From assembly GCA_964414295.1 (NCBI GenBank), contig CAYPVU010000010.1, positions 6,937 through 70,936 on the forward strand: a stretch of 64,000 nucleotides of DNA, in the 5' to 3' direction. Source of the DNA: an uncultured Candidatus Saccharibacteria bacterium. Its GTDB lineage: Bacteria; Patescibacteriota; Dojkabacteria; J137. Made by a program: the position numbers and the translations under genes. Under the pieces are notes generated by a model, which was not told the DNA's origin, did no database searches, and saw only the letters and a list, made by a program, of their open reading frames with translations. Below, piece after piece: positions 20,900 to 61,127 of the stretch (its first letter is position 1; each line of letters opens with the position of its first letter).

Positions 20900-20950
20900 T
20901 TGGTATACCACGTATACCATATTAATACTTATATTTAACTTGGTATACCA
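20900..20950 (+). promoter_or_regulatory. Candidate LexA operator pair (TTGGTATACCA) overlapping the lexA promoter and start codon
   Basis: The perfect 10-bp palindrome TGGTATACCA occurs at 20901-20910, followed by a tandem GTATACCA, and again at 20941-20950, where it ends in the lexA ATG. A TTGACA -35 lies at 20890. Confidence 0.45.
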
Positions 20951-37943: not shown

Positions 37944-37944
37944 T

Positions 37945-39113: not shown

Positions 39114-39116
39114 TTT

Positions 39117-39551: not shown

Positions 39552-39573
39552 TTTAATTTATTAAATAAATCTT

Positions 39574-40068: not shown

Positions 40069-40084
40069 TTAATTTTAATTTCTT

Positions 40085-40113
40085 AAAGCCCGCCTTTTGG
40101 CGGGCTTTTTTTT
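40085..40113 (+). terminator. Rho-independent hairpin within the pilin-like array (possible attenuator after paralogue 5)
   Basis: aaagcccgcc-tttt-ggcgggcttt followed by a T8 run. Confidence 0.6.
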
Positions 40114-40177
40114 ATCTTCTTGATAAGCTATTATCTTTAATCTATAGTGTATTGAGTATTAATGTTATTATCTTCTC

Positions 40178-40990
40178 ATGAATAAAAAGAAAAAATTAGT
40201 TTATTTACTTCTTTTGCTTAATCTCTTTTTTGGTCAATTTGCGGTAGTACATGCACAATTACAGACCTTTGATTTCTCCGCCAATAATCCAGAAAGCTAC
40301 CAATGTTTTAATAAAGAAACAGGAGAGATATTAGATATACCCGTTGAGCCAACTCCGGACGAATTTGGTAATTACTATTGTAATAATGGAGGAACTAGAG
40401 TTATAGCTCAATTAAAACCTCCTACACTCCAGCAATTAGAAGTTTGGTTTGTTAGAATTTTATACGCAATTTGGGGTCTTGTGGCTTCTTTATCCTTTCT
40501 ATTCTTAGTTAAGTTAGGATACGAATACACAATATCTAGAGGGGACCCTACAAAGATAACAGAAGTAAGAAAAAGAATTGTAAGTTATTTAATAGGTTTT
40601 GCTCTTGTATTTTTAGCTGTCCCAATATTAACTACAGTATTTAGATTGTTAGGCATTAATACTAATGCGCAGTGTTATAACGTTAATATGCCTGGCTTTA
40701 GATTCTTTTATGCTACATTATGTACCGACCCTAAGGGAGTGATCGCATCTAAATTTGCCTCTAATCCGTGTCAGGCATTTATTGATGGAGAAGCGCCAGA
40801 AGGTATTACTTGTAGCGGAACTCCTTATGCGGGTGGTGCACCAGTTACATGTGGTGTAGTTGGTTTAGCTTCAATTTCATTAACATGCCAAGTTCAAGAA
40901 GGAGATAGCCCAGGTGCATCAACGTGGTGTAGAACATCAACTTTATTTGGCTTTTGCTCATCATCGTGTAACCCATCGGGTTGTCCATAA
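40178..40990 (+). CDS. Pilin-like secreted protein, paralogue 6, with extended Cys-rich C-terminal domain
   Basis: Signal peptide ...VHA|QL; helix-loop ISRGDPTKITEVRK-helix; about 120-aa C-terminal tail with 12 Cys. Confidence 0.45.
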   Translation: MNKKKKLVYLLLLLNLFFGQFAVVHAQLQTFDFSANNPESYQCFNKETGEILDIPVEPTPDEFGNYYCNNGGTRVIAQLKPPTLQQLEVWFVRILYAIWGLVASLSFLFLVKLGYEYTISRGDPTKITEVRKRIVSYLIGFALVFLAVPILTTVFRLLGINTNAQCYNVNMPGFRFFYATLCTDPKGVIASKFASNPCQAFIDGEAPEGITCSGTPYAGGAPVTCGVVGLASISLTCQVQEGDSPGASTWCRTSTLFGFCSSSCNPSGCP

Positions 40991-42489
40991 TGATTCAATT
41001 TATTAGTTTAAAAAAAAATAACGTTCAAATTAATTTATTGGAAAGTTCAATAGATTTGAACACGCTTGAAGATCTTGTTAAATTACTTAATAGGGATTCT
41101 AGTATTGATATTGAATTAGCATTTAAAATTAATAAAGCTAATAGATCAGAGCAGTTTTTAATAAATAAGACTTCAATTTTAAAAGAGGGAAATGTAATAG
41201 AAGAGAATTCTTTTTTTAATCTAGTAAAAGCTGAACTAGGAATTATTTTAGATGCTAATATTCTAAAAAGTAGATTCCTAGAAGCAAGTAGTTTAAATGA
41301 TCTAGAAGCTTCTTTCAATTCTTTAAACTTAACAACTGATCCAGAGTTAGAAACTAAGATAAACTCTAAAACTCAACAACAAACAGAATTAAAAACTCAA
41401 CTTCTTAATACTTTAGATGAAGATCAAAAGAGTAAATTTACTAGATTAGAAGAGGTTACTCAGAGGATTGCATCTATTCAGGTTCAGGTAGATTTTTACC
41501 AAAATGAAAAGAAAATAAAAGAAGAACTTAATAGTAATATAAAAAAATATAAGATTGATAAAGAAAATATCAATCAAATGCTTCAATCCGTAGAGTTGTT
41601 AATAGAAAATAAAGAATCGTTAAATTTAAAACTAAAGTCCTTTGAGCAATTTAGTGATTCTTACGATAAAGTTAAGGAATTAAAAGCTCAAAAAATCAAC
41701 TATCTGAACTCTAAATTATCTATAAGACATTCACCTGGATCCTCAATTTTAGAAGACGATATTAAGGAAGCTGAAAATAAATCTAGTTCACTAAATTTAT
41801 TCTTAGTAATTCCAATTATAAATTTATTGATAACATTTGTAGTTTTTTTAGTTACTTATAATGCAGCGGTACTTTTAATCGGAATCCTTTTTACTGTATT
41901 CTTAATGATTATTTATATTGTATCTAGATTTTTTAAAGATTCATTAGAAGATGTTGAAGAATTAAATAATAAAGCATTTTCTCCCCAAGCGGATTCTAAA
42001 GAAGGTGTTGCAGAAGTAGAAGACCCAAATACTCAATTATTTATAAATAGTGCATGGGCTAAAGCAATAAAAGATGAATTAGAAGTTGTAGATGAAAATA
42101 TTACAAAAAGCTTAAATGGGAAGTCTTATGAGGCTCTAAAGCAGGATCTTACAAATTTAGATTTAAATATAGAAAAAGAAAATAATAAATTGGAAGAGTT
42201 AACTCAAAAAGCAATAACCTCAGATGAGTACTATAAAAAAAGAAGAGAAATAGATATTTTAAAAATCGAAAAAGAGAATCTGGAATATGGTTTAAAGTTA
42301 GAGCCTACCATAAATAATAAAATACAAGATTTATCAAAAGAAATAGAAAATTTAAAGCTATTAACAGAAATGGGACAGAAAACTAATGCTTTAGTGCCCG
42401 TTTTTATCAAATTTAGTGAGAATTTGCCTCAAATTGAGCAAATTAAGCAAATAATTAGTGCACAGGTAATTCTCGTAGGGTTAAATTAA
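40981..42489 (+). CDS. Coiled-coil membrane protein (central TM hairpin)
   Basis: Long heptad-rich N- and C-terminal regions flank an approximately 45-aa hydrophobic segment LFLVIPIINLLITFVVFLVTYNAAVLLIGILFTVFLMIIYIV; overlaps the upstream gene by 10 nt. Confidence 0.45.
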   Translation: MSIMIQFISLKKNNVQINLLESSIDLNTLEDLVKLLNRDSSIDIELAFKINKANRSEQFLINKTSILKEGNVIEENSFFNLVKAELGIILDANILKSRFLEASSLNDLEASFNSLNLTTDPELETKINSKTQQQTELKTQLLNTLDEDQKSKFTRLEEVTQRIASIQVQVDFYQNEKKIKEELNSNIKKYKIDKENINQMLQSVELLIENKESLNLKLKSFEQFSDSYDKVKELKAQKINYLNSKLSIRHSPGSSILEDDIKEAENKSSSLNLFLVIPIINLLITFVVFLVTYNAAVLLIGILFTVFLMIIYIVSRFFKDSLEDVEELNNKAFSPQADSKEGVAEVEDPNTQLFINSAWAKAIKDELEVVDENITKSLNGKSYEALKQDLTNLDLNIEKENNKLEELTQKAITSDEYYKKRREIDILKIEKENLEYGLKLEPTINNKIQDLSKEIENLKLLTEMGQKTNALVPVFIKFSENLPQIEQIKQIISAQVILVGLN

Positions 42490-42504
42490 AGTTATAATCT
42501 AGTT

Positions 42505-43290
42505 ATGTCTAATAATACCTCAGGTAATCAGAATAATGGAGAAAATAACGGATCTAATAATTCGTTTAGCTACCCACAGCCTGTTTATCCTGGAAGTATG
42601 GCAAACCCATTTAACGGGTATTACTATTATCCTTCTAATATGCAACAACCACAAAATAATAGAGATTACATATTAAAGATGAGAGAGCAGGAGGCTAATA
42701 AAATTGTTCCAGAAAAAAAAGGAATGCCTTGGTCTTCAATTATTTTAAAGCCTAATTTAGTATTCGAAACACAAAATCCTAACGAAAAGGTTTTTGTTTT
42801 AGTAAGGGCACATTGGTTAACTAATCTAGGATGGTTTTTAAGAAATCTTTTCTTAGCAATTCTTCCATTTATAGTATTCTCTTTACTAGAATATTTCGGA
42901 ATTCGAATTGATTTAACCTTTATAGGCAGTAAAGCTTCTACAATCTTAGGACTGCTTTATTATTCTTTTATATTTACAAGTATAGTAAGTAACTTTATTG
43001 ACTGGTATTTTGACCCATTTATAGTTACTGATATTCGTATAATGGATTATGACTATAAGCCTTATTCAAATTATAAAGTTTCCGAAGTTAACTTACAGGA
43101 TATTCAAGAAGTAAAGGAAAGATCTGCAGGTTTAATTGGAGATATCTTTAATTTTGGAAACGTTTATATCTATAGTGCCAGCGATAGAACAGAAATGATT
43201 TGTTCTAACGTGCCTTCACCTACAAAAGTTAGAGATATTATTATCGATTTATCTACCGTAGCTAAAACATATAAATATGACAATCTCTGA
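42505..43290 (+). CDS. Membrane protein with Asn/Gln-rich N-terminus, TM pair and bacterial PH-like (bPH_2/YdbS-like) C-domain (tentative)
   Basis: Two TM helices followed by a region DIRIMDYDYKPYSNYKVSEVNLQDIQEVKERSAGLIGDIFNFGNVYIY resembling bPH_2 proteins. Confidence 0.4.
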   Translation: MSNNTSGNQNNGENNGSNNSFSYPQPVYPGSMANPFNGYYYYPSNMQQPQNNRDYILKMREQEANKIVPEKKGMPWSSIILKPNLVFETQNPNEKVFVLVRAHWLTNLGWFLRNLFLAILPFIVFSLLEYFGIRIDLTFIGSKASTILGLLYYSFIFTSIVSNFIDWYFDPFIVTDIRIMDYDYKPYSNYKVSEVNLQDIQEVKERSAGLIGDIFNFGNVYIYSASDRTEMICSNVPSPTKVRDIIIDLSTVAKTYKYDNL

Positions 43291-43498
43291 ACTATTAACA
43301 CCTGAAATAATTGAGTTTATTAAAGTTATTGCAATTATTATTGGATTAGTACATTTATTAGCTGGATTTATATTAGTATTCCAGACTTTTAGAATGAATC
43401 GAATTATAAAAACCCCGAATGCTCCTATTTTTAGTATTATTGCAATTGTCTACATTGCTGTATTAATGGCTACGTTAATTTTAATCTTGAGTGCATAG
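43277..43498 (+). CDS. Small two-TM membrane protein
   Basis: 73 aa, two hydrophobic helices; overlaps the upstream gene by 14 nt. Confidence 0.35.
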   Translation: MTISELLTPEIIEFIKVIAIIIGLVHLLAGFILVFQTFRMNRIIKTPNAPIFSIIAIVYIAVLMATLILILSA

Positions 43499-43554
43499 AA
43501 TACATTTTCTTTTTTGATATACTGTTTTAAGGATAGTTAATCTTTTTAAAGTAT

Positions 43555-46053
43555 ATGCATTTAAGAGCAGATTTTATTGTAGGAACTCAAACCTCTAATT
43601 CATGGTCAGGAGTATATGGTTTTAAACCAGAAGACTCTATTGAGCCGCTAGAACTTTTTGCCATTATTAAGTTGGAATCCCTTACCAGCGAAGACAGATT
43701 AGAGGCTCTGGCTAAAATGTTTTTAGATGAACTCCAAAACTATCTATTTAACGAAGGTAAAGAGGGAAACTATATAATTAGACTAGAAAATGCTGTTTGG
43801 AAAATGAAATCCAAAATGGAGTTGCTTTTATCTTCAGATGAAAGATATTCCCAAAATGGATTAGATATAGAAATTGCTCTTACTTTATTCGATAAGAATT
43901 TTCTTTACTTAGGTGTAATAGGCGAAAGCAAGATCTTTATTAAAAGAGAGGATAAATTTGTAGAGCTTTCTCAAGGTTTATCTGATGCAAACATGATGGG
44001 CTTCTTAAAAACAGGAAGTCTAGAACTGGAAGAAGGGGATAGACTGGTTTTAGCAACCAATACAGCTGCAGAACAAGGGCTGGGAAGTATAGAGGCTTCT
44101 GTTAATAATTTAAATATTCAAGCATTGTCATCATTAACTAGTGGAAAAGGTACTGCAGTACTACTTTTAGCAGATGAAAAAGATAATTGGACAGAAAAAG
44201 AAATTATAGATGAAGAGTTTATTCCAGAAACTCCTATTAATTTAGAAACTGAAGATAATCAACATCAAGAATCTGCCAAATTTATACCTATTCAAGAAGA
44301 AGATTTTGAAGATAATACCGAATATATTGCTACAGAGTCAAACGAAGAAGAGTTAAACCTACAGCCATTAGAAGATAAAATTATTCCCGTAGAGAGGGAG
44401 GAAGTTGTTTTAAATACTAATATAACAGAATTGAATGAAAATGAATTACCAAAAGGAAAGGTCTTATTAAATTCAGTAGGGAGTAAATTATCTTCAAGTA
44501 TGAGGGTAGGGGCAAGTAAACTTACTGATTTACGCACGAGAATGAAAAGAGTTCCCCTAGAAAACGCAACTGAATTTAATAATGACATAGATAATTCAGT
44601 AGAGATTAAAGAATCAAAAGTAGGTTCAGTACTCACTAAAACTGCACCGATTCTAAATTCTATACAATCCTTTGTGCAAAACAAGTTAATGCCTTTCTTT
44701 AAAAAAAGTAATAAAACATATATTAAATATTTAAGAGATTTTGTTTTACTTGTAGTTGGATTAATTAAAAAATTCGTGGCATGGTTTAAAAAAGAATTTA
44801 TTGGTGGAGGAGTTGATGATAGAAGGAATATTTTTGAAAAAGCAAAAAAAAGAAAAAGAAATAGAATTATTTTAATTGTACTTGTAGTTATTTTGGCAAT
44901 ATTAATTGTATCAGCGATTAATAATAGAAATGCACAATTAAGGGAACAGGAAAGAATCGATACTGCTAGATCAAATGTAGATCAATATAAATCTGAACTA
45001 GACAATTTAGTAAGACAAGCAAATAGTAATCTTAATGATACTCAGAAAAATACTGTAATAGATCAGTTAGATAAACTAAACACTAGTTTAGAAACACAAA
45101 AAAGACAGGATTTATTTATAGATGAAATTGCAAATTATCAAACAACCATTACCAAAACAAAAGATAAAGTTTTAGGTGTTGTTGGCTTTACGGACCCACA
45201 AATGGTTGCAGATATTGGGAAAATCTATTCAGATGCAAATTTAATAGATATGGTTTATACGGATGGTAATTTATATGTGGGAGATAAGGCAAGAAATGCA
45301 ATATATCAAGTAGGAACAAATATAAATTCTCAGGTATCTCAATTTGCAACTGGTTTAAATGCCCCATATACAATGACAGTAAATGCGGCAGGAGACATTA
45401 TTTTCTTTGATTCAGATAGTACAAGTGCTGTAGGTAGAATATTTGTGGGGGAAAATGGCAGAATTGAAAGATATCCTGGATTAGCTCCTGCAGTTATTGG
45501 CACTGTTACTAAATCAGCAGTTTTTAGTGGTAATGATGCCTTATATGAATTACATCAAAATCATCAGCAGATATATAAAAGAGAAAAAGCAGGTGAAGAT
45601 TATACTAGTGGAGGAGCAGTATATAACACACAAAATCCACCAAACTGGAAAACAGACCCAGAGTTGGGAAGTGCAATAGATATAGATATCCCTTACGAGA
45701 TTTATGTTTTGATAAGAGGTAAAGGATTAAGAAGATATTTAGCTGGGGAAGCAAATACAATCTCTAAAGAAACCTTTGTAAATACTTCTCAAAAAGATAT
45801 TGACTCATTAGCATCTGCCACTGCATTTGACATAGATGGTAAACTATTGGCAGTTGCTGATCCAACAAACAGAAGAGTACTTTTATTCAGAATTGAAGAT
45901 AATGATGCTAAAACTTTGGCATACGAGAAATCTTATGTATATAGAGGTAATGACTCTACAACCTTTAAAAATATTAAAGAAATAGTTGTGAATGAATCAA
46001 GTAAGTATATCTTTGTATTGGATGGCACAGGAATAATAAGATTAGATATTTAA
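43555..46053 (+). CDS. Large bitopic membrane protein with cytoplasmic N-domain and C-terminal beta-propeller/NHL-like repeat region
   Basis: TM NRIILIVLVVILAILIVSAI near residue 440. C-terminal repeats (DGNLYVGDKARNAIYQV; GDIIFFDSDSTSAVGRIFV; LAVADPTNRRVLLF) suggest a beta-propeller. Confidence 0.45.
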   Translation: MHLRADFIVGTQTSNSWSGVYGFKPEDSIEPLELFAIIKLESLTSEDRLEALAKMFLDELQNYLFNEGKEGNYIIRLENAVWKMKSKMELLLSSDERYSQNGLDIEIALTLFDKNFLYLGVIGESKIFIKREDKFVELSQGLSDANMMGFLKTGSLELEEGDRLVLATNTAAEQGLGSIEASVNNLNIQALSSLTSGKGTAVLLLADEKDNWTEKEIIDEEFIPETPINLETEDNQHQESAKFIPIQEEDFEDNTEYIATESNEEELNLQPLEDKIIPVEREEVVLNTNITELNENELPKGKVLLNSVGSKLSSSMRVGASKLTDLRTRMKRVPLENATEFNNDIDNSVEIKESKVGSVLTKTAPILNSIQSFVQNKLMPFFKKSNKTYIKYLRDFVLLVVGLIKKFVAWFKKEFIGGGVDDRRNIFEKAKKRKRNRIILIVLVVILAILIVSAINNRNAQLREQERIDTARSNVDQYKSELDNLVRQANSNLNDTQKNTVIDQLDKLNTSLETQKRQDLFIDEIANYQTTITKTKDKVLGVVGFTDPQMVADIGKIYSDANLIDMVYTDGNLYVGDKARNAIYQVGTNINSQVSQFATGLNAPYTMTVNAAGDIIFFDSDSTSAVGRIFVGENGRIERYPGLAPAVIGTVTKSAVFSGNDALYELHQNHQQIYKREKAGEDYTSGGAVYNTQNPPNWKTDPELGSAIDIDIPYEIYVLIRGKGLRRYLAGEANTISKETFVNTSQKDIDSLASATAFDIDGKLLAVADPTNRRVLLFRIEDNDAKTLAYEKSYVYRGNDSTTFKNIKEIVVNESSKYIFVLDGTGIIRLDI

Positions 46054-46055
46054 AC

Positions 46056-46511
46056 ATGAAAGTCCTAGCCAGTAATAAAAAGGCCTATTTTGATTTTGAT
46101 ATACTTGAAAATATTGTAGCAGGTATTAGTCTAGTTGGATGGGAAGTAAAATCAATTAAAGCAGGCAAAATAAGTTTAAATGGTGCTTACATTAAAGTAT
46201 TAAATGGAGAGATGTACTTAGAGAATGCAGTTGTGCCTTCGCTTAAATACACTCCTAACGTTTCTCAGCATCAAGAAAGCAGAAAAAGGAAGTTGTTGCT
46301 TACTAAAAGACAAATCTCTGTATTAACTGCAAATGCTAAACAACCCGGAAATACAATTGTCCCCTTAGAAGTAGTAGAAAATGATTCCGGATTAATAAAA
46401 GTAAATGTAGCATTAGTAAAGGGTAGAAAAAAGTTTGATAAAAGAGAGAAGTTAAAAGAAAAAGATATTCAGAAACGAATTAATTTTGAAAGAAAAAAGT
46501 ATAATATTTAA
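46056..46511 (+). CDS. smpB: SsrA-binding protein SmpB
   Basis: VAGISLVGWEVKSIKAGKISLNGAYI...RKRKLLLTKRQI, the SmpB signature; 151 aa. Confidence 0.85.
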   Translation: MKVLASNKKAYFDFDILENIVAGISLVGWEVKSIKAGKISLNGAYIKVLNGEMYLENAVVPSLKYTPNVSQHQESRKRKLLLTKRQISVLTANAKQPGNTIVPLEVVENDSGLIKVNVALVKGRKKFDKREKLKEKDIQKRINFERKKYNI

Positions 46512-46513
46512 AT

Positions 46514-47065
46514 ATGAGCAACTCCAATCAGACTTTAAAACAAAATAATGAAGAAAATTTAAAATTAGTAGAAAGATTTGGATTTAAATTTTTTGGATAT
46601 GATGAGAATTCTTTTACTCTTGTAGTTGCTCCAAATGGTCAAATAGTACCCTTGAATGTGGCGTATGAGTTTGTACAAACTCAAATTGCTAATTCTCAAA
46701 CATTTTCTGGAGGCGGAATGGAAGGAATGCCAAATATGCCAACTATGCCCACACTCCCCGAAGCTAAAGTTGAATCAAAGGTTGAGTCAGCTATAGAAAA
46801 TAGGATAGAGAAAAAACAAGAGAGTACAAATGATAATAATCAAACCCAGCAAACAGTATCTGCAACTCCTAAACAGGAGCCTGCTAAAAAAACTGAATTA
46901 GAATCTCCTTATGGAGATGGATTTAAAACTCCTATTAATCCTGCTTATATCGAAAAGGCTTTAGACTATATAAAAAGAAATAGCAAAAAATCATTAAGCT
47001 CTACTTCTAAATGGCTTTCTGTTCAATTTGAGAAATTTATTTCCGAACAGAATTCTGGCAAATAA
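46514..47065 (+). CDS. Hypothetical protein (Met/Pro-rich linker)
   Basis: No signal peptide or TM helix; no recognisable motif. Confidence 0.35.
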   Translation: MSNSNQTLKQNNEENLKLVERFGFKFFGYDENSFTLVVAPNGQIVPLNVAYEFVQTQIANSQTFSGGGMEGMPNMPTMPTLPEAKVESKVESAIENRIEKKQESTNDNNQTQQTVSATPKQEPAKKTELESPYGDGFKTPINPAYIEKALDYIKRNSKKSLSSTSKWLSVQFEKFISEQNSGK

Positions 47066-47124
47066 TTCTTACTTAACTGCAGAGGGAAAATAATCTATAA
47101 TAAAGCGAATTATATATTTAATAA

Positions 47125-49584
47125 ATGTTTTCAGGACAGAATATTACAAATTTCAACACTACAGTTGATACTTCATGGGTTCAAGGAGCCGTAATCTTTT
47201 TACTTGTTCTACTTGTAGTATTAGTTGTCTTGGGCATAGTAATTGCCAAGTTTTTACAGAACTTTAAACAAGAAGTTTTAAAGAAAAAGGGGTTAAATCT
47301 TGTTTTTTATGAAGTAAAACTCCCCAAATCTAATGATGTAGAAATTAGAGCTGCAGAGCAAATGTTCACTGGTCTTATTGGTATAGGAGAGGAATTAAAA
47401 GGGTTTAAAAAGTTTGTAGGGGCAAGAAAGTTTGTAAGCTTTGAGATAGTTGCATTTAAAGAATCAATTAAGTTTTATGTTGTTTGTCCAAAAAGTATTT
47501 CTAATATTGTAGATAGGCAAATTAATGGAACCTACCCATTAGCAGAAATTAATCAGGTAAAGGAATATAATCTATTTCCAGATGGAGCATTTACTTCTTA
47601 TACATCTCTTAAGTTAGAAAAAGATACTAAAATTCCTTTTCAAACATATGAGGAACTTGCCGTAGATTCAATTGGAACAATAACTGATATTTTTAGTAAA
47701 CTACAAGAAAACGAAGGTGCTGTCTTTCAGGTTGTAATAACACCTGCCGGATCTGGTTGGAGAAATGAAGCTAAGTCTTTAGTTAAAAAGCTTAGAGAAC
47801 CAGCTAAAGAAGGAGAGACTGCTTCTAAGCCTAAATTTAATGATGATACTATTTCTTTAATTGATAAAAAAGCAGATAAATCTGGATTTTATACAGATAT
47901 AAGAATTGTATGTGTTTCCGATACAAAATTTGGTGCTGATTCTAATTTAGCCAATATTTTAAGTGTATTTGATCAATTCTTAAAAGAAGCAGGGAATCGA
48001 TTTAAGAAAACAAAAGAATCTGATTTAGGAAATTTTGCAGAAGACGTTATTTATAGAATTCCTAGGCTTTCAATGGTCTTAAATACTGCTGAACTGGCAA
48101 CTATTTTCCATTTCCCAAATAAAAATGTAACTTCTCCTCATATTAAATGGATGCTTGCTAAAAAGGCCCCGGCTCCAGATTTTGTAGCAAGTAATTACCA
48201 ACAAGACTATATGTATATTGGTAGAAACTCATTTAGAGGTCAATTTAAAGAAATATTCATAAAACCTGAAGATAGATTAAGGCATATGTATGTAATAGGT
48301 CAGACTGGTACTGGTAAATCGGGTTTTATGTCTGGAATGATGATAAGAGATATGAAACTAGGCCATGGTTGTGGTTATATTGACCCCCACGGCACAGATG
48401 CGGAGAAAATATTACAACAGGTTCCTCCTGAAAGAGTTGAAGATGTAATAATTTTTGATCCATCTGATTTAGAAAGACCTGTAGGATTGAACATGCTAGA
48501 GTTTTCAAATCCTGCACAACGTACACTTGTTACAAACGAAATGTTAAATATATTTGATACTTTGTATAACCTTAAAACAACCGGAGGTCCAATGTTTGAA
48601 CAGTACTTTAGGTATGCAATTATGCTTTTAACAGATGATGTAGAATCAGGCTCTACATTAATGGAGATCCCTAAGATCTTTGCAGATGACGGTTATAGAA
48701 ACTATAAACTTTCAAAATGTACCGACCAGGAAGTTATAGACTTCTGGAGAAAACAGGCAGAACAAGCAACAGGCGATGTGGGGTTAAAAAATGTAACCCC
48801 ATATGTTGTTTCTAAACTTGCACCATTTTTAACTAATCAATATGTAAGACCTATTATTGCACAGCAAACTTCTACAATAAATTTTAGAAAGATAATGGAT
48901 GAAGGCAAGATCCTGATTGTAAAACTTACTAAAGGTAGAATTGGAGATTTAAACGCTGCACTACTAGGTATGATTATTATTGGTAAGTTACTAATTGCTG
49001 CTTTAGAAAGAGAAGGTACAGATGAAAAATCAAGAAATCCATTTTATCTGTACATTGATGAGTTTCAAAACTATCTTACAGATGGAATTATGACAATTTT
49101 AGCTGAAGCTAGAAAGTACAGACTTTCCTTAACAATGGGACATCAATTCATAGGTCAGTTAACAAGAGAAGGTGGAAATACAAAAATTAGGGATGCTGTA
49201 TTTGGTAATGTAGGAAACAAAGCTATTTTTAGAGTAGGTGAGGATGATGCTGCATTCTTAAAGAAGGTTATTGGTGAAGGTTTTGAAGAACTTGATTTAC
49301 AGCAAATAGAAAACTTTAATTTTTATCTAAAAATGTTAGCAGACGGTAAGCCAACTCCAGCTTTTACAGCAAGATCTTTTTATGGTGATTCTAAATACGA
49401 TATGATAGGTTCATCAAGCTCTCAGATTGCCGATGTAGCTAAACAAATTTCTAGACTTCGTTATGGTAAAGATAGAAACATAATTGAAAATGAGATTAAA
49501 TTAAGAGGTACATTTATTAAAGAAAAAACAGAGGAAGAAAAGAAACCTGCTTCCTTATTTGGTGGCGGATTAGGCGGATTCTAG
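47125..49584 (+). CDS. Membrane-anchored P-loop ATPase of the FtsK/HerA/VirB4 (DUF87-like) superfamily
   Basis: N-terminal TM VIFLLVLLVVLVVLGIVIA. Walker A HMYVIGQTGTGKSGF...GYIDPHG, Walker B FYLYIDEFQNY, and the downstream ARKYRLSLTMGHQFIGQL block typical of VirB4/TraC/HerA-like ATPases. Confidence 0.65.
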   Translation: MFSGQNITNFNTTVDTSWVQGAVIFLLVLLVVLVVLGIVIAKFLQNFKQEVLKKKGLNLVFYEVKLPKSNDVEIRAAEQMFTGLIGIGEELKGFKKFVGARKFVSFEIVAFKESIKFYVVCPKSISNIVDRQINGTYPLAEINQVKEYNLFPDGAFTSYTSLKLEKDTKIPFQTYEELAVDSIGTITDIFSKLQENEGAVFQVVITPAGSGWRNEAKSLVKKLREPAKEGETASKPKFNDDTISLIDKKADKSGFYTDIRIVCVSDTKFGADSNLANILSVFDQFLKEAGNRFKKTKESDLGNFAEDVIYRIPRLSMVLNTAELATIFHFPNKNVTSPHIKWMLAKKAPAPDFVASNYQQDYMYIGRNSFRGQFKEIFIKPEDRLRHMYVIGQTGTGKSGFMSGMMIRDMKLGHGCGYIDPHGTDAEKILQQVPPERVEDVIIFDPSDLERPVGLNMLEFSNPAQRTLVTNEMLNIFDTLYNLKTTGGPMFEQYFRYAIMLLTDDVESGSTLMEIPKIFADDGYRNYKLSKCTDQEVIDFWRKQAEQATGDVGLKNVTPYVVSKLAPFLTNQYVRPIIAQQTSTINFRKIMDEGKILIVKLTKGRIGDLNAALLGMIIIGKLLIAALEREGTDEKSRNPFYLYIDEFQNYLTDGIMTILAEARKYRLSLTMGHQFIGQLTREGGNTKIRDAVFGNVGNKAIFRVGEDDAAFLKKVIGEGFEELDLQQIENFNFYLKMLADGKPTPAFTARSFYGDSKYDMIGSSSSQIADVAKQISRLRYGKDRNIIENEIKLRGTFIKEKTEEEKKPASLFGGGLGGF

Positions 49585-50235: not shown

Positions 50236-50310
50236 AAATTTTAAATCTTTTTGCTATACTTTGCTTGCTTTTACAGCAAATCTTGAACATTAATAGTAAG
50301 TATTTTTAAT

Positions 50311-50384
50311 AGGCCTGTAGCTCAGCTGGTTAGAGCACGGTTCTTATAAAGCCGGGGTCCGCAGTTCAAGTCTGCGCAGGCCTA
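50311..50384 (+). tRNA. tRNA-Ile with UAU anticodon
   Basis: Cloverleaf AGGCCTG/CAGGCCT acceptor, discriminator A, anticodon stem CGGTT/AGCCG, loop CTTATAA (34-36 = TAT). 5' half nearly identical to the tRNA-Ile(GAU) in the rRNA spacer. Confidence 0.65.
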
Positions 50385-50481
50385 TTTAGAATATTTAGAC
50401 TTCTATACAAATTTTTCTCTAAAATCGATTAGTTTGCATCAAACCTATTACTACATTAAACTATAGAGTAAAGTTTTTTGT

Positions 50482-51153
50482 ATGCTTAAACTAAATTCAT
50501 TATTAAAATTGTCCTTAATCTTGTTTGCAAGCTTATTAATTCCAAGCTTTTTATCACTATTTAAAATTTCTTTTGATGAATATATTGCAGCACAAAAGGG
50601 GCAGGGTAAGGTTCAGGGAGCAAGTGTAGTAAATGTTCGTACTGTAAATGGAAGAACACCTGACGGGGAAGAACAGTCTGTTATAGTTAATGTTAATCTG
50701 CCACGAATTGGGTCTATTAGAAATCTAAGTGAAAGGCCCTTCGCTTTCCCAAATGCAAAAGCTAATACTGAATCTCCTTTAGTTAATCTCCAAGCACCAT
50801 TATCCTACCCTGATGGCCCAAATAATCCTGTTTATATAATTTCTAAGGATGGTGGAAGAGGAGGGGATTCCTTTTTATTTGCATACGGCGGACTAAAAGG
50901 TAATTATCTATCTTTCTACAACGGAAACAATTACGATATGAATGATGTTAGGATTCAAATAAAATGGTCTAATGGAAACATTGAATATACAAGTATTTAT
51001 TCTACACAGCAAATTCAAAGAAAATTAGGATTTTACGTTGCCGTAAATAACTCTTCTGAGGCTAGTATCCCGTATAATCCCCAAATGAGGATTAAGGAAT
51101 TTTTAGTAAGATTTAAGGATAATGCGGGAATGGAGTATATTGCAGAATTTTAA
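50482..51153 (+). CDS. Hypothetical secreted protein
   Basis: Signal peptide; Gly/Asn-rich; no motif. Confidence 0.4.
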   Translation: MLKLNSLLKLSLILFASLLIPSFLSLFKISFDEYIAAQKGQGKVQGASVVNVRTVNGRTPDGEEQSVIVNVNLPRIGSIRNLSERPFAFPNAKANTESPLVNLQAPLSYPDGPNNPVYIISKDGGRGGDSFLFAYGGLKGNYLSFYNGNNYDMNDVRIQIKWSNGNIEYTSIYSTQQIQRKLGFYVAVNNSSEASIPYNPQMRIKEFLVRFKDNAGMEYIAEF

Positions 51154-52019
51154 AGCTCTACAAGCTTATTTTCAGGCCTTGCTTTATATTTCTTACTTAA
51201 TAATTCTAAATATCTTGTAGTTGTAGCAATGTTTTTATGCCCAACAATTTCTGCAAGAGTAGTTAAAGATATACCATTGCTTAGTTGATTTACTATAAAT
51301 GTATTTCTAAGATCATTTACGCAGGCATTTCTCACCTTTGCTTTGATTATTATTCTATCGATTGAGCCTCTAATATTCCTTACTTCTATACTTCTACCTG
51401 TTTTAGTACAGAATAGAGGGGAATTGGGCTTTTTAGCAAACTTGTGCTGTGCTAGATATGCTTTTAGTTCAGTCAATAACTTCCCATTAATTGGAACCTT
51501 TCTTTCATCATTGCTGCCAAATTGTTCTATTTGTACATAAGGTCTAGAACCGCTTAAATGTAGATCCTTTATTTTTATTCTTGAAAGCTCCCCAATTCTT
51601 ACACCGGTTTGAAGAAGAAATTCAATAATTACAAATATTTTATAATTATCTCTACTACATTCTTTTAGTGCTAAATATTCAGGTCTAGATAAAAATCGTT
51701 GTTTCTTTATTCTAAACTTAGGATGAGAAATATTTAAAGTAGGATTTGATTTAATATACTTTTTTTCCTCTAAAAACTTATAGAAAGTTCTTATGCTGTT
51801 CAGTTTTCTAGAAATTGTCTTTGCAGAAAGAGTATAGGTATTTTGTAAAAAGTTTAAACCATGTTTTATATCTGCTTCACTAAAATCTACTAAAGATTTA
51901 TTTAGATTGCTTTCTGCTAACTGACTTAAGTCATTTTTATAAGCTATTAGCGTTGACTTTGCTTTCCCCCTTCTTTTAAGGTAATTTATAAAGTCATTTA
52001 TTAATTTTTCAGTTTCCAT
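51150..52019 (-). CDS. Tyrosine recombinase (XerC/XerD-like)
   Basis: N-terminal core-binding helix pattern (KSTLIAYKNDLSQL); catalytic R...H-x-x-R...Y blocks (GVRIGELSRIK; LRNTFIVNQL; VGHKNIATTTRYLEL); 289 aa. Confidence 0.8.
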   Translation of the reverse strand: METEKLINDFINYLKRRGKAKSTLIAYKNDLSQLAESNLNKSLVDFSEADIKHGLNFLQNTYTLSAKTISRKLNSIRTFYKFLEEKKYIKSNPTLNISHPKFRIKKQRFLSRPEYLALKECSRDNYKIFVIIEFLLQTGVRIGELSRIKIKDLHLSGSRPYVQIEQFGSNDERKVPINGKLLTELKAYLAQHKFAKKPNSPLFCTKTGRSIEVRNIRGSIDRIIIKAKVRNACVNDLRNTFIVNQLSNGISLTTLAEIVGHKNIATTTRYLELLSKKYKARPENKLVEL

Positions 52020-52090
52020 TTGCAGAATTGGTTTACAAGTGACAAAATATTAACATGGGTATATTATAGGGTCAATTAACTTAAAAATTT

Positions 52091-52504
52091 ATGCAGGGCT
52101 TACTTAAAAGAATCTTTCAAAAAGCAAAAAATAATTTAAATGAGGTTAAATTTGACGGTATAGCGTTATCTATTGTTCTTGCTTTTTTAGTTCTAGTAAT
52201 TGCAGGCAATATTATAAGAGTTTTCACTAATGGGCAAAGTAATTATTCTACTTTCTTAGAAGAAAAAGCTGAATTAGATAAATTACTAGAAAGGAATGAG
52301 AATCTAAATCAAGAATATGCATATGTAAATTCAGATGAATACAAAGCATTATTACTAAGGGATGCTCAAAACTTAGCTAAACCCGAGGAAACTCTTTACA
52401 ATACAAAAGAACGGCCAAGTTTCTTTTTTGAAGAACCTGAATATTTAGATCTGGAAACAAAAAGTAATTATATGGACTGGTGGTTAAAATTGATCGGGAA
52501 GTAA
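52091..52504 (+). CDS. FtsB/DivIC-like septum formation initiator (TM plus coiled coil), tentative
   Basis: Single TM LSIVLAFLVLVIAGNII followed by a Leu-zipper-like coiled coil EEKAELDKLLERNENLNQEY. Confidence 0.4.
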   Translation: MQGLLKRIFQKAKNNLNEVKFDGIALSIVLAFLVLVIAGNIIRVFTNGQSNYSTFLEEKAELDKLLERNENLNQEYAYVNSDEYKALLLRDAQNLAKPEETLYNTKERPSFFFEEPEYLDLETKSNYMDWWLKLIGK

Positions 52505-52544
52505 TTATCTGATATAATCCATTGCATTTAAAAATATTAGTGAT

Positions 52545-52619
52545 CGCGGGGTAGAGCAGTGGCAGCTCGTCAGGCTCATAACCTGAAGGTCGTGCGTTCG
52601 AATCGTACCCCCGCAACCA
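52545..52619 (+). tRNA. tRNA-Met (CAU), initiator type
   Basis: Anticodon loop CTCATAA; C1 x A72 unpaired end (CGCGGGG vs CCCCGCA), which is characteristic of bacterial initiator tRNA; CCA encoded. Confidence 0.7.
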
Positions 52620-52620
52620 A

Positions 52621-52653
52621 AAGCCCCTACATGTTTGTAGGGGCTTTTGATTT
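52621..52653 (+). terminator. Rho-independent terminator after tRNA-fMet
   Basis: agcccctac-atgttt-gtaggggct followed by TTTGATTT. Confidence 0.65.
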
Positions 52654-52701
52654 AAATCGCTTAAAATATTTTAAGTTTCCTGATAAAATCCATAAGCATA
52701 T

Positions 52702-52775
52702 GTCAGGGTAGCTCAGAAGGTTAGAGCACAGGATTCATAAACCTGAGGTCGAGGGTTCGATTCCCTCCCCTGATA
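52702..52775 (+). tRNA. tRNA-Met (CAU), elongator type (alternatively an Ile2-type CAU tRNA)
   Basis: Cloverleaf GTCAGGG/CCCTGAT, anticodon loop TTCATAA, T-loop TTCGATT. Confidence 0.65.
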
Positions 52776-52885
52776 CTATTTATATCTATTCGGCATTTAA
52801 GACCATTATTTCCAAAGAACGTTTTTATAATAGACGTCATAAGATATAATAAATGTAGTTCCAATTTAATTATTCACTTAAATCT

Positions 52886-55291
52886 ATGGATAAAGATTCT
52901 CAATCGAATAAGAAAGAAGAAAAGAAAACCCTTTCCCCACAAGAAGAAATGGAAAAGTTATCGAATGAAATACTTAATAAGATTCAATCTGTACAAAAAA
53001 AGCCGAACAAAAAGAGTAAAGGATTTGTACCTCGATTTAATCCTTTATTTTTAATAATTGGAGTATTCTTAATCCTCCTTTTAGCACTTAGCTTTTTTAA
53101 TCGATCTGGAAATAATGCAGTTAATACAACTTTAGACAGCATTGTTAGAGGTGTAAAAGATAATAGATTCTCTCAGGTTTATATTCAGAATGATGGAAAG
53201 GTAATTGCATATAGTAAATCTTATGCAGTTGTAGGTTCTGCAGAAGACGTTCAAGTTCAAACTTCTGACAAATATAAATATACTGCAGATTCCTCTGATG
53301 GTTTTGAAGTTCAGACTTTAGATCAATTTGTTTCTAACTTTACAATAAAAGATTCTCTTACAGCTCTAAGAGCTTTATTGAATAATCAATATTCAACAAT
53401 AAGAGAAGTTGTAATAGGGGAAAACTATATTATTGGTGTAAGACCAACTGGATCTAAGGATATTATTGTCAAAAATGTTTCAGAAAAGGACTTTTTAGGA
53501 AAGTTAAATGACAGAAATCTTACTATTGAATCCCTTACAGCTAACGTTAAAAAGCTTAGAACAGAGTCTATTTCCTTAAATGGAAGCTCATTTACAGAAA
53601 GGAAAAATGATAATCAGTTTACAAATATATTTGCTGTAGACAATATGCTAATTGCAAGAATGAAACCTGAATTGGTTCAGCAGTATTACGTTGACTGGAA
53701 TCCTAATATCTATTCTTTTACAGACTTATTACAGAACGAAGGAGTTTCCTTAACTAATGAAAGTGTAGAAATACTCTCGGTTAATGTTCCTTCTAGTATT
53801 GGATTCTCGGATATTATTAACATTATTACACTTGTAGGTTTTGTAGTTTTAATATTCTTTATATTTAGAGGAGCTCAAGGTTCAGGAATGGGGATTATGC
53901 AGTTTGGGCAAAGTAAGGCAAAAGTATTCTTTGGATCAAAAACCGATACTACTTTTGATGACGTAGCAGGTATTGATGAAGCAAGAAATGAATTATTTGA
54001 AATTGTAGATTTCTTAAAAAATCCTAATAAATATAGAAAGTTAGGAGCAAGAATTCCAAAAGGTATTTTATTAGTTGGTCCTCCAGGTACAGGTAAAACC
54101 CTCTTGGCTAGAGCTATTGCTGGAGAAGCAAAAGTTCCATTCTTCCATACTTCTGGATCAGAATTTGAAGAAATGTTAGTTGGTGCAGGTGCTTCCAGAG
54201 TAAGAGACCTTTTTGACAAGGCAAAAAAGGCTGCTCCATCCTTAATATTTATTGATGAAATTGATGCTGTAGCTAGAAAAAGAGGTACAAAAATTCAGAC
54301 TGGTGCTACTGAGCAGACATTAAATCAAATTCTTGTAGAAATGGATGGATTTGAAAAAAATACAAATGTTATTGTATTGGCTGCTACAAATAGACCTGAT
54401 GTTTTAGATCCAGCTATATTAAGACCAGGAAGATTTGATAGGCAAGTAAGAATTGATTTACCAGATGTTGAAGGAAGAAAGAAGATCTTAGATATACATG
54501 GAGAAAATAAGCCTTTTGCGGCAGATGTAGATTTATACAGAATTGCAAAAAGAACTGTGGGCTTTACTGGGGCTGATTTAGAAAATATTCTTAATGAAGC
54601 AGCAATTATTGCAGCAAATGCTAACAAAAAAGAAATCAGTGATTCAGATATTGATGAAGCGGTTTCTAAGGTAGTTTTAGGCCCAGCTAAAAAGTCTAAG
54701 AAAAGAACTGAAAAAGAACTTAAATTAGTTGCTTATCACGAAGCAGGTCATGCGGTAGTCGCTAAATATACATCTAATTCAACTCCTGTTGATAGAATTT
54801 CTATTGTATCAAGAGGTATGTCAGGTGGAGTTACAATGTTCTTACCAGAAACAGATGAATATATAATCTCAAAAGGTAAGCTTCTTGCTGATATTACTGT
54901 TGGACTTGGTGGTAGAGCAGCGGAAGAGTTAGCATTAGATGATATTTCTACAGGAGCATCTAACGATATTGAAAAGGCTACGGCAATTGCAAGAAGAATG
55001 GTTCAGAGGTTTGGTATGAGTGATAAATTAGGCTTAGTACAATATGGTGATTTTGAAGAAAATGAATATTTAGGTTATGCATATTCAACAAGTAAAGAAT
55101 ATTCAGAAAAAACAGCTGAAGAAATCGATACTGAAGTAAGATCAATTATTGAAAATGCTTATACTAATGCCAAAAAAGTATTAGAAGAGCATAGAGATAA
55201 ATTAGATTTGGTAGCTAATATGCTACTAGAAAAGGAAGTGATGTCCAAAGAGGAGTTTGATGCTTTATTTACTGAGCAGCAAGATCAATAA
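52886..55291 (+). CDS. ftsH: ATP-dependent zinc metalloprotease FtsH with enlarged extracytoplasmic domain
   Basis: Two TM helices about 250 aa apart. AAA+ module ([18 protein letters not shown], second region of homology) and HEAGHA zinc motif; 801 aa. Confidence 0.95.
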
Positions 55292-59103: not shown

Positions 59104-59411
59104 CTCAATACAAATTTTTTGCACCAGTACTAATCTTAAAACAAGCGTTTAAGAAGGCTGGTTTACCTCATAATAGAAATGGAATTTAAAATCTTTAAGC
59201 GGAGAGATTTCTTTGCGCTTTAGATTTTAGAGGTACGCACTTTGAATATTTAAAAGTGACAAGGTTTCTTTAATATTTCTTTGAAGTCAAGGTCTAAACT
59301 ACCAATCATTAAATTGATTTTATCCTACTTGCAGAAATGCAAAAGGATTTAATAAATCCTAAGTTCAAGTAATTGAACGACGGTCTTCCGCATCGTCAAG
59401 TGGAAGTATTT

Positions 59412-60921
59412 TTATGGAGAGTTTGATCCTGGCTCAGGGTTAACGCTAGCGACGTGCCTAAGGTATGCAAGTCGAACGGTGAAATTTTGGTAGCAATACT
59501 GAAATTTCATAGTGGCAAACGGCTGAGTAACGCGTGGGAATCTCCCCCTAAGTCTGATATAGCTCACCGAAAGGTGGGGTAATCTCAGATGGTCTCGTAA
59601 GAGTAAAGATTTTTCGCTTAGGGATGAGCCCGCGTCCTATCAGGTTGTTGGTGGGGTAATTGCCTACCAAGCCTATGACGGGTAGCTGGTCTGAGAGGAT
59701 GGCCAGCCAGACTGGGACTGCGATACGGCCCAGACTCCTACGGGAGGCAGCAACTAGGAATTATGCGCAATGGACGAAAGTCTGACGCTGCGACGTCGCG
59801 TGAAGGATGAAGGTCTTAGGATCGTAAACTTCTTTTATCTACGAACAAGTTCTGAGTGTAGTAGATGAATAAGTGCCTGCCAACCACGTGCCAGAAGCAT
59901 CGGTAATACGTGGGACACAAGCGTTACCCGGATTCACTGGGCGTAAAGAGATGCGTAGGCGACTAGAAAAGTTCTGTGTTAAATCCCAAGGCTCACCCTT
60001 GGAACCGCATAGAAAACTCTCTGGATTGAGTCATGTAGAGAATAGGGGAATTCCTGGTGGAGCGGTTAAATGCGTTGATATCAGGAGGAACACCAATGGC
60101 GAAAGCACCTATTTGGACATGTACTGACGCTAAGGCTCGAAAGTGTGGGGAGCAAAACGGATTAGATACCCGTGTAGTCCACACCGTAAACAATCCCTGT
60201 TAGATGTTCGGAATCTTGCTGAAATTTCTCTTCGGAGAAGGATAAGCATTTTCTGAGTGTCGCAGCTAACGCGTTAAACAGGGCGCCTGTGAAGTACGAC
60301 CGCAAGGTTAAAACACAAAGGAATTGACGGGGACCCGCACAAGCAGTGGAGTGCCTGGTTTAATTCGATGATCAGCGAAGAACCTCACCTGGGCTTGAAC
60401 TGTAGCTGCAAACCCTATGAAAATAGGGCTCTTTCGAAGGTGCTATAGAGGTGATGCATGGCTGTTGTCAGCTCGTGTCGTGAGATGTCGGGTTAAGTCC
60501 CACAACGAGCGCAACCCCTTTCAGATGTTACAATTACTTCTGATACTGCCCCGCCCAAACGGGGAGGAAGGAGGGGATGACATCCAGTCATCATGTCCCT
60601 TATGTCCAGGGCTACACAGACACTACAATGGCGATAACAATGGGTTGCCAAACCGCGAGGTGGAGCTAATCCCATCAAAGATCGTCTCAGTTCAGATTGC
60701 AGTCTGCAACTCGACTGTATGAAGGCGGAATTGCTAGTAATCGGACATCAGCATGGTCCGGTGAATACGTTCTCGGGTCTTGTACACACCGCCCGTCAGG
60801 GCATGGGAGTTGCTCATACTCGAAGTCTACGTTTATCGTGGCCGAAAGTTATGGGTGGCGACTGGGCTTAAGTCGTAACAAGGTAGCCGTAGGGGAATCT
60901 GCGGCTGGATTACCTCCTTTC
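59412..60921 (+). rRNA. rrs: 16S ribosomal RNA
   Basis: 5' GAGTTTGATCCTGGCTCAG. The 530 loop, 1390s region (GTACACACCGCCCGTCA) and anti-SD CCTCCTTTC are present. Universal 515F site altered to GTGCCAGAAGCATCGGTAA. Confidence 0.9.
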
Positions 60922-61050: not shown

Positions 61051-61127
61051 AGGCCAATAGCTCAGCTGGTTAGAGCATTCCTCTGATAAGGGAAAGGTCC
61101 ATGGTTCGAGTCCATGTTGGCCTACCA
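61051..61127 (+). tRNA. tRNA-Ile (GAU), in the rRNA spacer
   Basis: AGGCCAA/TTGGCCT acceptor, anticodon loop CTGATAA, CCA encoded. Confidence 0.9.

Follow-up and report, generated by a model that had tools for sequence, protein, structure and literature searches.

A tRNA-Ile gene with a UAU anticodon is conserved at one chromosomal place in Dojkabacteria and probably serves as the decoder of AUA

The window analyzed here, a stretch of 64,000 nucleotides, has about 32% G+C outside its rRNA operon, which is ordered 16S-tRNA-Ile(GAU)-tRNA-Ala-23S, and it also carries tmRNA, SmpB, FtsZ/FtsA, RpoD, GroEL, IleRS, FtsH, PolA, a sortase and type IV secretion-like genes. The homologues of its IleRS and FtsH that bear an organism name are all from Candidatus Dojkabacteria bacterium (CPR/Patescibacteria), and an FtsH identical to that of the window is present in NCBI and Logan assemblies and was seen in runs SRR12997672/3. 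The features relevant to the decoding of isoleucine codons are presented in Table 1.

Table 1. Positions of the tRNA genes and associated features in the window, with the evidence for each (L003, L005, L007 and L130 are the four related genomes described in the text).
Feature	Position	Strand	Evidence or remark
IleRS, type 2 (eukaryote/archaeal-like C-terminus), 991 aa	14291..17266	-	NCBIfam ileS 806 bits, PDB matches
TraG/TrwB-like protein (coupling-protein-like)	47125-49584		Pfam
Promoter-like TTTACA-16-AATAGT, 13 nt upstream of tRNA-Ile(UAU)	50270..50297	+	Weak, consensus match only
tRNA-Ile(UAU) gene, 74 nt, without encoded CCA	50311..50384	+	Rfam, ARAGORN, cloverleaf read, syntenic orthologues, covariation
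Anticodon TAT (positions 34-36), loop CTTATAA	50345..50347	+	Sequence
Xer-type tyrosine recombinase	51150..52019	-	Pfam; same place in L003, L005, L007 and L130
DivIC-like gene	52091..52504	+	Pfam DivIC E=3e-4, below gathering score; PF04977 on the L130 orthologue
Initiator tRNA-fMet (CAU)	52545..52619	+	CCA encoded; C1xA72 mismatch, A11, G12
Elongator tRNA-Met (CAU), not tRNA-Ile2	52702..52775	+	C3-G70 and A4-U69 in all orthologues; T loop TTCGATT
ftsH	52886..55291	+	Pfam, synteny; two CAU tRNAs occupy the usual tilS site directly upstream
tRNA-Ile(GAU), 16S-23S spacer, AUU/AUC decoder	61051..61127	+	ARAGORN, Rfam, sequence

The tRNA-Ile(UAU) gene matched RF00005 with 63.9 bits against a gathering score of 29 (E=1.5e-11) and covered the full span of the model (1-71 of 71). 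ARAGORN, run on the 64-kb window, called six tRNAs, including tRNA-Ile(tat) at 50310-50385; each of these ends is one base too wide, and 50311-50384 are the correct bounds. Reading of the sequence gave an acceptor stem AGGCCTG/CAGGCCT with A1-U72, U8 and A9, a D arm GCTC-AGCTGGTTA-GAGC, A26, an anticodon arm CGGTT-CTTATAA-AGCCG, a variable loop GGGTC, a T arm CGCAG-TTCAAGT-CTGCG and the discriminator A73 at 50384. The clean cloverleaf, the TAT at 34-36 and the A73 described in an earlier sequence-only reading were thus borne out, and ARAGORN, one of the tRNA finders that it had proposed as a check, returned the same anticodon and isotype. When folded alone, the tRNA had a non-cloverleaf minimum free energy structure (z = -1.6), which is usual for single tRNAs and uninformative. 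A promoter scan around the gene gave weak consensus matches, in a number not above the shuffled expectation.

The anticodon-loop and discriminator residues of isoleucine isoacceptors (A35, U36, A37, A38, and A73) are all present, together with the Ile-type pairs G3-C70, C4-G69, C5-G68, and U12-A23, which agrees with the isoleucine identity proposed earlier. The pairs C4-G69, U12-A23, and C29-G41 are said to have been described by Nureki et al. in 1994 as determinants of the E. coli IleRS. The last of them is absent from the UAU tRNA, which has G29-C41, and present in the GAU tRNA of the window; this determinant was defined on a type 1 enzyme, and the IleRS of the window is of type 2.

Comparison with the tRNA-Ile(GAT) of the rRNA spacer revealed 25 matches in the first 27 nt and an overall identity of only 72%, so that the near identity of the 5' half noted in the sequence-only reading stood for these first bases and did not extend to the gene as a whole. 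Such a shared 5' end speaks for a recent derivative or artefact, in which the gene would be a pseudo-tRNA, a sequencing error or a tRNA-Ile(GAU) copy whose G34 became T. The tilS suppressor of B. subtilis is reportedly of this last sort, and a case of recent derivation seemingly exists in a Flavobacterium MAG (L118), where the TAT and GAT copies are 99% identical. The 72% identity to the GAU tRNA is, however, no higher than the mean identity of 74% to the UAU tRNAs of other genomes, and the two genes are for this reason read as old paralogues rather than as the product of a fresh G34-to-T mutation. The same TAT gene was found in independent assemblies and on 41 metagenome contigs, and the stems covary. 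The derivative or artefact reading is contradicted by paralogue divergence, independent assemblies and covariation, and its probability is negligible.

Synteny was anchored on FtsH homologues and is therefore independent of any tRNA. The order in the window is SmpB, a small ORF, DUF8128 (coupling-protein-like), tRNA-Ile(TAT), Xer on the opposite strand, the DivIC-like gene, tRNA-fMet, tRNA-Met and FtsH, with PolA a few genes past FtsH, and the whole order from SmpB to PolA is kept in four other Dojkabacteria genomes, namely L003 (GCA_030834985; FtsH identity 77%), L005 (OZ246402.1, 1.19 Mb; 65%), L007 (AP024679.1, 862 kb; 60%), and L130 (GCA_016788825; 55%). Among the syntenic UAU orthologues, compensatory changes were observed in the acceptor stem (AGGCCTG/CAGGCCT against GCTCCTG/CAGGAGT) and in the T stem (CGCAG/CTGCG against AGTGG/CCACT), and the anticodon stem varied between G28-C42 and A-U around an invariant anticodon loop. 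In JGI and other metagenomes, the Dojkabacteria-type anticodon arm occurred with TAT on 41 contigs and with CAT on none, and all 41 were called tRNA-Ile(tat). The tRNA-Ile(UAU) gene is thus held at one chromosomal place across Dojkabacteria, with compensatory substitutions and with T34 fixed.

As its neighbours on either side are a coupling-protein-like gene (type IV) and a Phage_integrase-family gene, the tRNA gene might also be carried by a mobile element or serve as its attachment site, in which case it could have been acquired horizontally and lie outside the core decoding set. Against this, the recombinase, the coupling-protein-like gene, SmpB, ftsH and polA keep their collinear order in Dojkabacteria with FtsH identities as low as 55%, the recombinase has the domain layout of XerC/D, no break in composition was seen in the window, and neither flanking direct repeats of the tRNA 3' end nor sister genomes devoid of the tRNA were seen. 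The adjacent recombinase provides no evidence of a mobile element because it is part of the conserved block, and on this conserved synteny the mobile-element reading was rejected as very improbable.

The CAU tRNAs were classified by the published discriminator positions (Silva et al., 2006; PMC1635315), according to which A11/G12 mark fMet, C3-G70 marks Met, and G3, A3, C70 or T70 are found only in tRNA-Ile(CAU), G3-C70 being excluded from Met tRNAs. No tRNA-Ile2(CAU) was found in the 64-kb window, whose two CAU genes encode the initiator and the elongator Met tRNA. Ile2 discriminators were present in none of the 35 CAU tRNAs that lie near UAU tRNAs in the loci of the first set (three unclassed), and the CAU tRNAs listed for the later loci were all fMet or Met, none of them Ile2.

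In the ORFs of the window, ATA accounts for 537 of the 1643 isoleucine codons (33%), or 29.4 per 1000 of 18,241 codons, and is more frequent than ATG (16.4 per 1000). The abundance of AUA expected by the sequence-only reading was thereby confirmed, and with a genuine UAU tRNA alongside abundant AUA the gene does bear on the decoding strategy, as that reading had held. In an alignment of approximately 210 IleRS and FtsH homologues, the residues opposite ATA codons were I (51%), L (15%), V (13%), and M (2%), essentially as for ATT/ATC, and those opposite ATG were M in 48%. Since the residues aligned to ATA match those of ATT/ATC and differ from those of ATG, AUA behaves as an isoleucine codon in this genome. 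A reassignment of the codon, with the UAU tRNA charged with another amino acid such as Met, as for AUA in many mitochondria, is a formal possibility; it is rejected by the residues aligned to ATA, the acceptor pair G3-C70 is excluded from Met tRNAs (PMC1635315), and A73, C4-G69, and U12-A23 are of the Ile type, so that we consider it scarcely credible.

The IleRS of the window had MupA and MupB as next-best NCBIfam models after ileS, and it carries the C-terminal domain PF19302. Its matches in the PDB reached 590-675 bits for type 2 enzymes (T. thermophilus, P. megaterium IleRS2, and eukaryotic cytoplasmic IleRS) and 250-277 bits for type 1 enzymes (S. aureus 1FFY, 273 bits, as compared to 675 for 1ile). 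The C-terminal segment aligns to ARD3 of PmIleRS2, where Q920/R923/K924/L928 correspond to Q961/R964/K965/L969, the residues assigned to the G34 pocket (preprint 10.64898/2026.02.03.703510), and the motif Q-x-x-R-K was present in every IleRS homologue sequence displayed. In yeast IleRS, Arg999 gives hydrogen bonds to the carbonyl of G34 or I34, and modelling placed it on O4 of U34 or Psi34 and indicated that it cannot bind C34 (Chen et al., 2024; PMC11685878). The tilS-less Bifidobacterium and Neorickettsia carry an IleRS of the eukaryote type (PMC3575796). About half of bacteria have IleRS2, and because most of those still use lysidine (preprint 10.64898/2026.02.03.703510), the enzyme type is permissive for a UAU tRNA and not diagnostic of it. 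The adaptation of IleRS seen in Mycoplasma mobile, to which the sequence-only reading had pointed, does not apply, as the window enzyme is of type 2 and has no Zn-binding domain of the kind that bears Arg865; an enzyme of the M. mobile type is a type 1 IleRS marked in that domain by Arg or Lys at the position of E. coli Trp905. With a pocket that is canonical for type 2 (Q920/R923/K924/L928), the IleRS looks pre-adapted rather than specially adapted.

The gene for the lysidine-forming enzyme was searched for in several ways. No PF01171 protein was found among the window ORFs scanned (Pfam on selected ORFs). With E. coli TilS as the probe, phmmer (--max) detected no TilS in the six-frame ORFs translated from the window and from 174 loci (1.38 Mb in total), and no ORF with the PP-loop motif SGGxDS was present in the same sequence; as these 1.38 Mb were sampled from genomes of about 1 Mb (0.86-1.19 Mb), approximately 1.4 chance encounters with tilS are expected, which gives little genome-wide power. 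The sequence seen per genome was 64 kb for the source and about 20 kb for each relative. At the canonical site beside ftsH, tilS was absent in five of five Dojkabacteria loci, and no PF01171 gene was found among the Pfam-annotated neighbours of ftsH at this site in the loci of nine Dojkabacteria and Paceibacteria relatives. Among the remaining CPR loci with an ftsH, rpsA or another gene occupied the upstream position, and TilS never did.

A comparator within the CPR is the cultivated Saccharibacterium Southlakia epibionticum, for which gene order was taken from a supplementary table and not from sequences (Wang et al., PMC10633639). Here, TilS (SEML1_0730, PF01171) is essential by Tn-seq and lies directly upstream of FtsH (0729), three genes annotated as tRNA-Met (0733, 0739, and 0741) occur within 8 kb, with a DivIC-like gene (0740) between two of them, and the single annotated tRNA-Ile is in the rRNA operon (PMC10633639). 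This is the standard set of fMet, Met, and Ile2(CAU) with TilS. The DivIC-like gene is a marker common to the Dojkabacteria locus and to the tilS/ftsH/tRNA(CAU) region of Southlakia (SEML1_0740). In Dojkabacteria, TilS is missing from the DivIC-like/tRNA(CAU)/ftsH neighbourhood, which contains one UAU tRNA beside its two CAU tRNAs, fMet and Met. Both systems of AUA decoding are present in the CPR as a whole, and because the TilS-bearing Southlakia has three CAU tRNAs and one annotated tRNA-Ile, the comparison suggests that the lysidine and UAU systems alternate within the CPR.

These observations also bear on whether the UAU tRNA could be a redundant decoder, which only supplements a lysidine-based reading of AUA by tilS and a tRNA-Ile2(CAU) encoded elsewhere in the genome. 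Both systems are documented together in Lactobacillus casei/plantarum, Cyanothece, and Ferrimonas (PMC3575796), the TilS of Southlakia is present and essential in a CPR bacterium, and the part inspected is a small fraction of any Dojkabacteria genome. On the other side stand the missing tilS at its usual ftsH-side place, the CAU tRNAs that were all without Ile2 discriminators or listed as fMet and Met, the lack of any CAU version of the Dojkabacteria-type tRNA among the metagenome contigs, and the third CAU tRNA that accompanies TilS in Southlakia, where one tRNA-Ile is annotated. On balance, redundancy is rather unlikely. That the UAU tRNA replaced the tRNA-Ile2(CAU)/TilS (lysidine) pair in Dojkabacteria, as the comparison of its neighbourhood with that of Southlakia implies, appears reasonably likely.

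The spread of UAU tRNAs was investigated in one genome per GTDB species with a pattern that required TTATAA in the anticodon loop together with a D arm of the Ile type. At least 120 loci matched, and ARAGORN called tRNA-Ile(tat) in 114 of the 123 loci that gave any tRNA call. The lineages were counted by hand from record titles, so that the tallies are approximate and some MAG titles are unreliable. Among the matches listed, about 59 (about half) bear CPR names, including Parcubacteria/Paceibacteria, "Saccharibacteria", Dojkabacteria, Peri-/Peregrinibacteria, Magasanikbacteria, and Microgenomates, as well as Woese-, Shapiro-, Kuenen-, Falkow-, Buchanan-, Uhr-, and Moranbacteria. The others listed comprise 12 DPANN or other archaea, about 9 Ignavibacteria, 14 MAGs named "uncultured Gammaproteobacteria", 16 unnamed "bacterium" records, and a few from Dormibacterota, Planctomycetota, Clostridia, Similichlamydia, and Flavobacterium. 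In one locus titled Saccharibacteria (L037), the named relatives of FtsH are for the most part Yanofskybacteria and further Paceibacteria.

Covariation analysis of 100 distinct bacterial UAU tRNAs revealed that 99% of the cells were paired as compared to 72% in shuffles, with changes on both sides in 16 of 21 pairs and with 23-43% paired in slid controls; the D stem was invariant because the search pattern had fixed it. Of the UAU tRNAs examined, all had A73, about 85% had G3-C70 and most had C4-G69. An unbiased sample of Paceibacteria-type loci, anchored on FtsH with L037 as the query locus, showed tRNA-Ile(TAT) in five of five (Yanofsky-, Colwell-, and Taylorbacteria-type), located 70-260 nt downstream of ftsH and followed by tRNA-Val(TAC). 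The UAU tRNA is thus the rule in the sampled part of the tree (Dojkabacteria and Paceibacteria-type), and the rarity attributed to it by the sequence-only reading does not hold for this lineage, since the gene is kept throughout Dojkabacteria and is often found in DPANN archaea and other classes of the CPR.

In the literature, nine tilS-less species were reported by Taniguchi et al. (2013; PMC3575796), UAU tRNA-Ile was counted in 19 species in 2014, and it was still referred to as "rare cases" in 2026 (preprint 10.64898/2026.02.03.703510). No report linking the CPR with tilS, lysidine or UAU tRNAs was found in the literature searchable here, and a lineage-wide spread of UAU tRNA-Ile in the CPR is not described there; the evidence for a class-wide and CPR-recurrent UAU tRNA-Ile is what the present analysis adds. 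We propose, tentatively and at somewhat less than even odds, that UAU tRNA-Ile and not lysidine may be the standard AUA decoder in whole CPR classes (Dojkabacteria, Paceibacteria/Parcubacteria, Microgenomates-type, and Peregrinibacteria), as in many DPANN, tilS having been lost from the ftsH-side site that the UAU tRNA now adjoins.

For the genome studied here, the reading we prefer, with a probability of roughly 0.8, is that of a functional tRNA-Ile(UAU) acting as the dedicated decoder of the abundant AUA codons. In this scheme, which was built from gene sequences and their comparison, the UAU tRNA would decode AUA directly, while the tRNA-Ile(GAU) of the spacer would take AUU and AUC. Charging of the UAU tRNA would be performed by the type 2 IleRS and would need no special adaptation: R923, equivalent to R964 of P. 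megaterium IleRS2 and R999 of the yeast enzyme, may donate hydrogen bonds to O4 of U34, as to O6 of G34, and would reject C34. The UAU tRNA would in this way take over from the tRNA-Ile2(CAU)/TilS pair, and TilS is probably dispensable here. Candidate means to avoid the misreading of AUG are a modification of U34, competition by tRNA-Met, or a property of the ribosome as in M. mobile. The 16S rRNA of the window keeps G530, A1492, A1493, and C1054, and near the decoding site it shows lineage-specific changes of C522-G527 to A-U, C526 to A, and A1196 to C, together with C1409-G1491 changed to G-U (A-U in a relative); no function is attached to the changes at 522/526/527, 1196, and 1409-1491.

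Among the known systems, the tRNA-Ile(UAU) of the window would belong to the kind of AUA decoding represented by Bifidobacterium adolescentis and Neorickettsia sennetsu (PMC3575796), in which a UAU tRNA-Ile is likewise combined with a type 2 IleRS; in the present case no tilS turned up in the window, in the 174 loci or beside ftsH. Those organisms are from other phyla and are a few isolated species, whereas the trait described here extends over a whole class and reappears in several classes of the CPR. Mycoplasma mobile (PMC3575796), with a genome that is likewise reduced and AT-rich, also encodes the UAU anticodon by which it reads AUA, and it shares the problem of AUG misreading; its system relies on an unmodified U34 and a ribosome that rejects AUG, and its type 1 IleRS has Arg865 in place of Trp in the Zn-binding domain, whereas the Dojkabacteria enzyme would use the Arg pocket of ARD3. 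The eukaryotic cytoplasmic tRNA-Ile(UAU) (PMC11685878) has the same anticodon and an IleRS with the same class of C-terminal domain, in which conserved Arg and Gln read the carbonyl at position 34, but it is matured in an intron-dependent manner to PsiAPsi (U34 and U36), which increases charging 40-fold, and the Dojkabacteria gene has no intron. The canonical tRNA-Ile2(CAU) with TilS, including that of Southlakia, performs the same decoding task, has the DivIC-like gene, CAU tRNAs and ftsH nearby, and typically shows the acceptor pairs G3-C70, C4-G69, and C5-G68 that are also found here; the differences are T34 in place of C34 and the lack of a TilS gene beside ftsH.

In bacteria, the formation of lysidine by TilS is regarded as essential and almost universal. 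The UAU tRNA described here is conserved and syntenic in one CPR class, recurrent across the CPR, and paired with a type of synthetase able to read U34 unchanged, which gives a testable picture of how a modification enzyme held to be "essential" can be lost from reduced genomes. In a large set of organisms, the discrimination between AUA and AUG would have to be achieved otherwise, by modification of U34, features of the ribosome or competition. The gene tilS is believed to be one of the markers by which the quality and phylogeny of bacterial genomes are assessed, and a lineage-wide absence could affect estimates of completeness. If the class-wide reading proposed for the CPR is true, TilS-independent reading of AUA would be a major mode over a large share of bacterial diversity, and these organisms would need another mechanism to discriminate against AUG.

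Physical linkage of tRNA-Ile(TAT) and ftsH was observed across the CPR, comprising the window (50311-55291) and sixteen loci from other genomes (L021, L030, L037, L041, L047, L054, L059, L100, L106, L111, L112, L132-L134, L176, and L177). In Paceibacteria-type genomes, the order is ftsH, tRNA-Ile(TAT) directly downstream of it, and then tRNA-Val; genomes of Dojkabacteria and of the Microgenomates type have tRNA-Ile(TAT) 1.5-3 kb upstream of ftsH. The customary neighbor of tilS, the lysidine enzyme gene, in other bacteria is also ftsH. Taxon counts of tRNA-Ile(TAT) loci based on record titles are approximate; titles like "uncultured Candidatus Saccharibacteria" and "uncultured Gammaproteobacteria" of "binchicken" or SRP-named MAG loci (L037, L016, L018, L029, and others) are at odds with their content. 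The named relatives of the L037 FtsH were mostly Yanofskybacteria and other Paceibacteria, and several loci titled "Gammaproteobacteria" showed CPR-like tRNA arrangements.

The FtsH of the window has 801 amino acids, with the AAA domain from residue 394 onward, and thus carries approximately 200 additional N-terminal residues when compared to the FtsH of Paceibacteria-type CPR loci (about 605 amino acids). This stretch had no Pfam match, and the extension is common to the Dojkabacteria homologues (775-826 amino acids). Alignment of the IleRS with the type 2 enzyme of P. megaterium (PmIleRS2) left about 25 residues between the ARD2 and ARD3 alignments, compared to about 90 in PmIleRS2, which suggests that the INS subdomain, the contact to the tRNA D-loop, is absent or strongly shortened in Dojkabacteria IleRS.

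Encoded CCA was absent from the UAU tRNA gene in the window (50384-50386) and in the Dojkabacteria GCA_030834985, OZ246402.1, and GCA_016788825, while that of AP024679.1 encodes it (locus L007, 8333-8335). Since the fMet and GAU tRNA genes of the window encode CCA and the UAU tRNA gene does not, a CCA-adding enzyme must be present. A CAU tRNA with an initiator-like acceptor (TGCGGGG/CCCCGCA) was found in Woesebacteria, Shapirobacteria, and related CPR (L009, L018, L052, L058, and L115). Its first acceptor pair is U1-A72, where bacterial initiators have the C1xA72 mismatch, and it carries T11/G12 in place of A11/G12; if it is an initiator at all, these features would make it an unusual one. In a Flavobacterium sp. 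MAG (L118, 3276-3463), tRNA-Ile(TAT) adjoins a tRNA-Ile(GAT) with 99% identity, in contrast to the old paralogy of the two tRNAs in CPR. Either G34 changed to T very recently, as in the tilS suppressor of B. subtilis, or the pair is an error of the assembly.

Comparison of the 16S rRNA with those of GCA_030834985, locus L126, and E. coli revealed that Dojkabacteria depart from E. coli near the decoding center. Their 530 loop is GTGCCAGAAGCATCGGTAA (A522-U527 and A526), and they have a C at 1196 and a G-U or A-U pair at 1409-1491 of h44 instead of C-G. G530, A1492, A1493, and C1054 are retained. The divergence in the 530 loop overlaps with the target site of the 515F primer.

Features of the window.
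Feature	Position	Remark
HEPN-nucleotidyltransferase fusion protein	4950-5804	toxin-antitoxin-like
IleRS	14291-17266 (-)	
LexA homologue	20950-21585	
tmRNA	24985-25441	Rfam 47.2 bits, barely at gathering score (47)
Same-strand gene run	37560-49584	includes the pilin-domain protein, large ORFs, and DUF8128/TraG-like gene
T4SS pilin-domain protein	40178-40990	
Large ORF	40981-42489	no family match
Large ORF	43555-46053	no family match
SmpB	46056-46511	
DUF8128/TraG-like protein	47125-49584	coupling-protein homologue
tRNA-Ile(TAT)	50311-50384 (+)	
FtsH	52886-55291	
16S rRNA	59411-60920	

SmpB and tmRNA are both present in the window; at the orthologous locus of AP024679.1 (L007, 4726-5179), SmpB is broken into two short ORFs. 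This reduced genome has the HEPN-nucleotidyltransferase fusion and a LexA homologue. Synteny is kept for at least the segment from the large ORF preceding SmpB to DUF8128, and the same-strand run may represent a CPR type IV secretion/competence apparatus.
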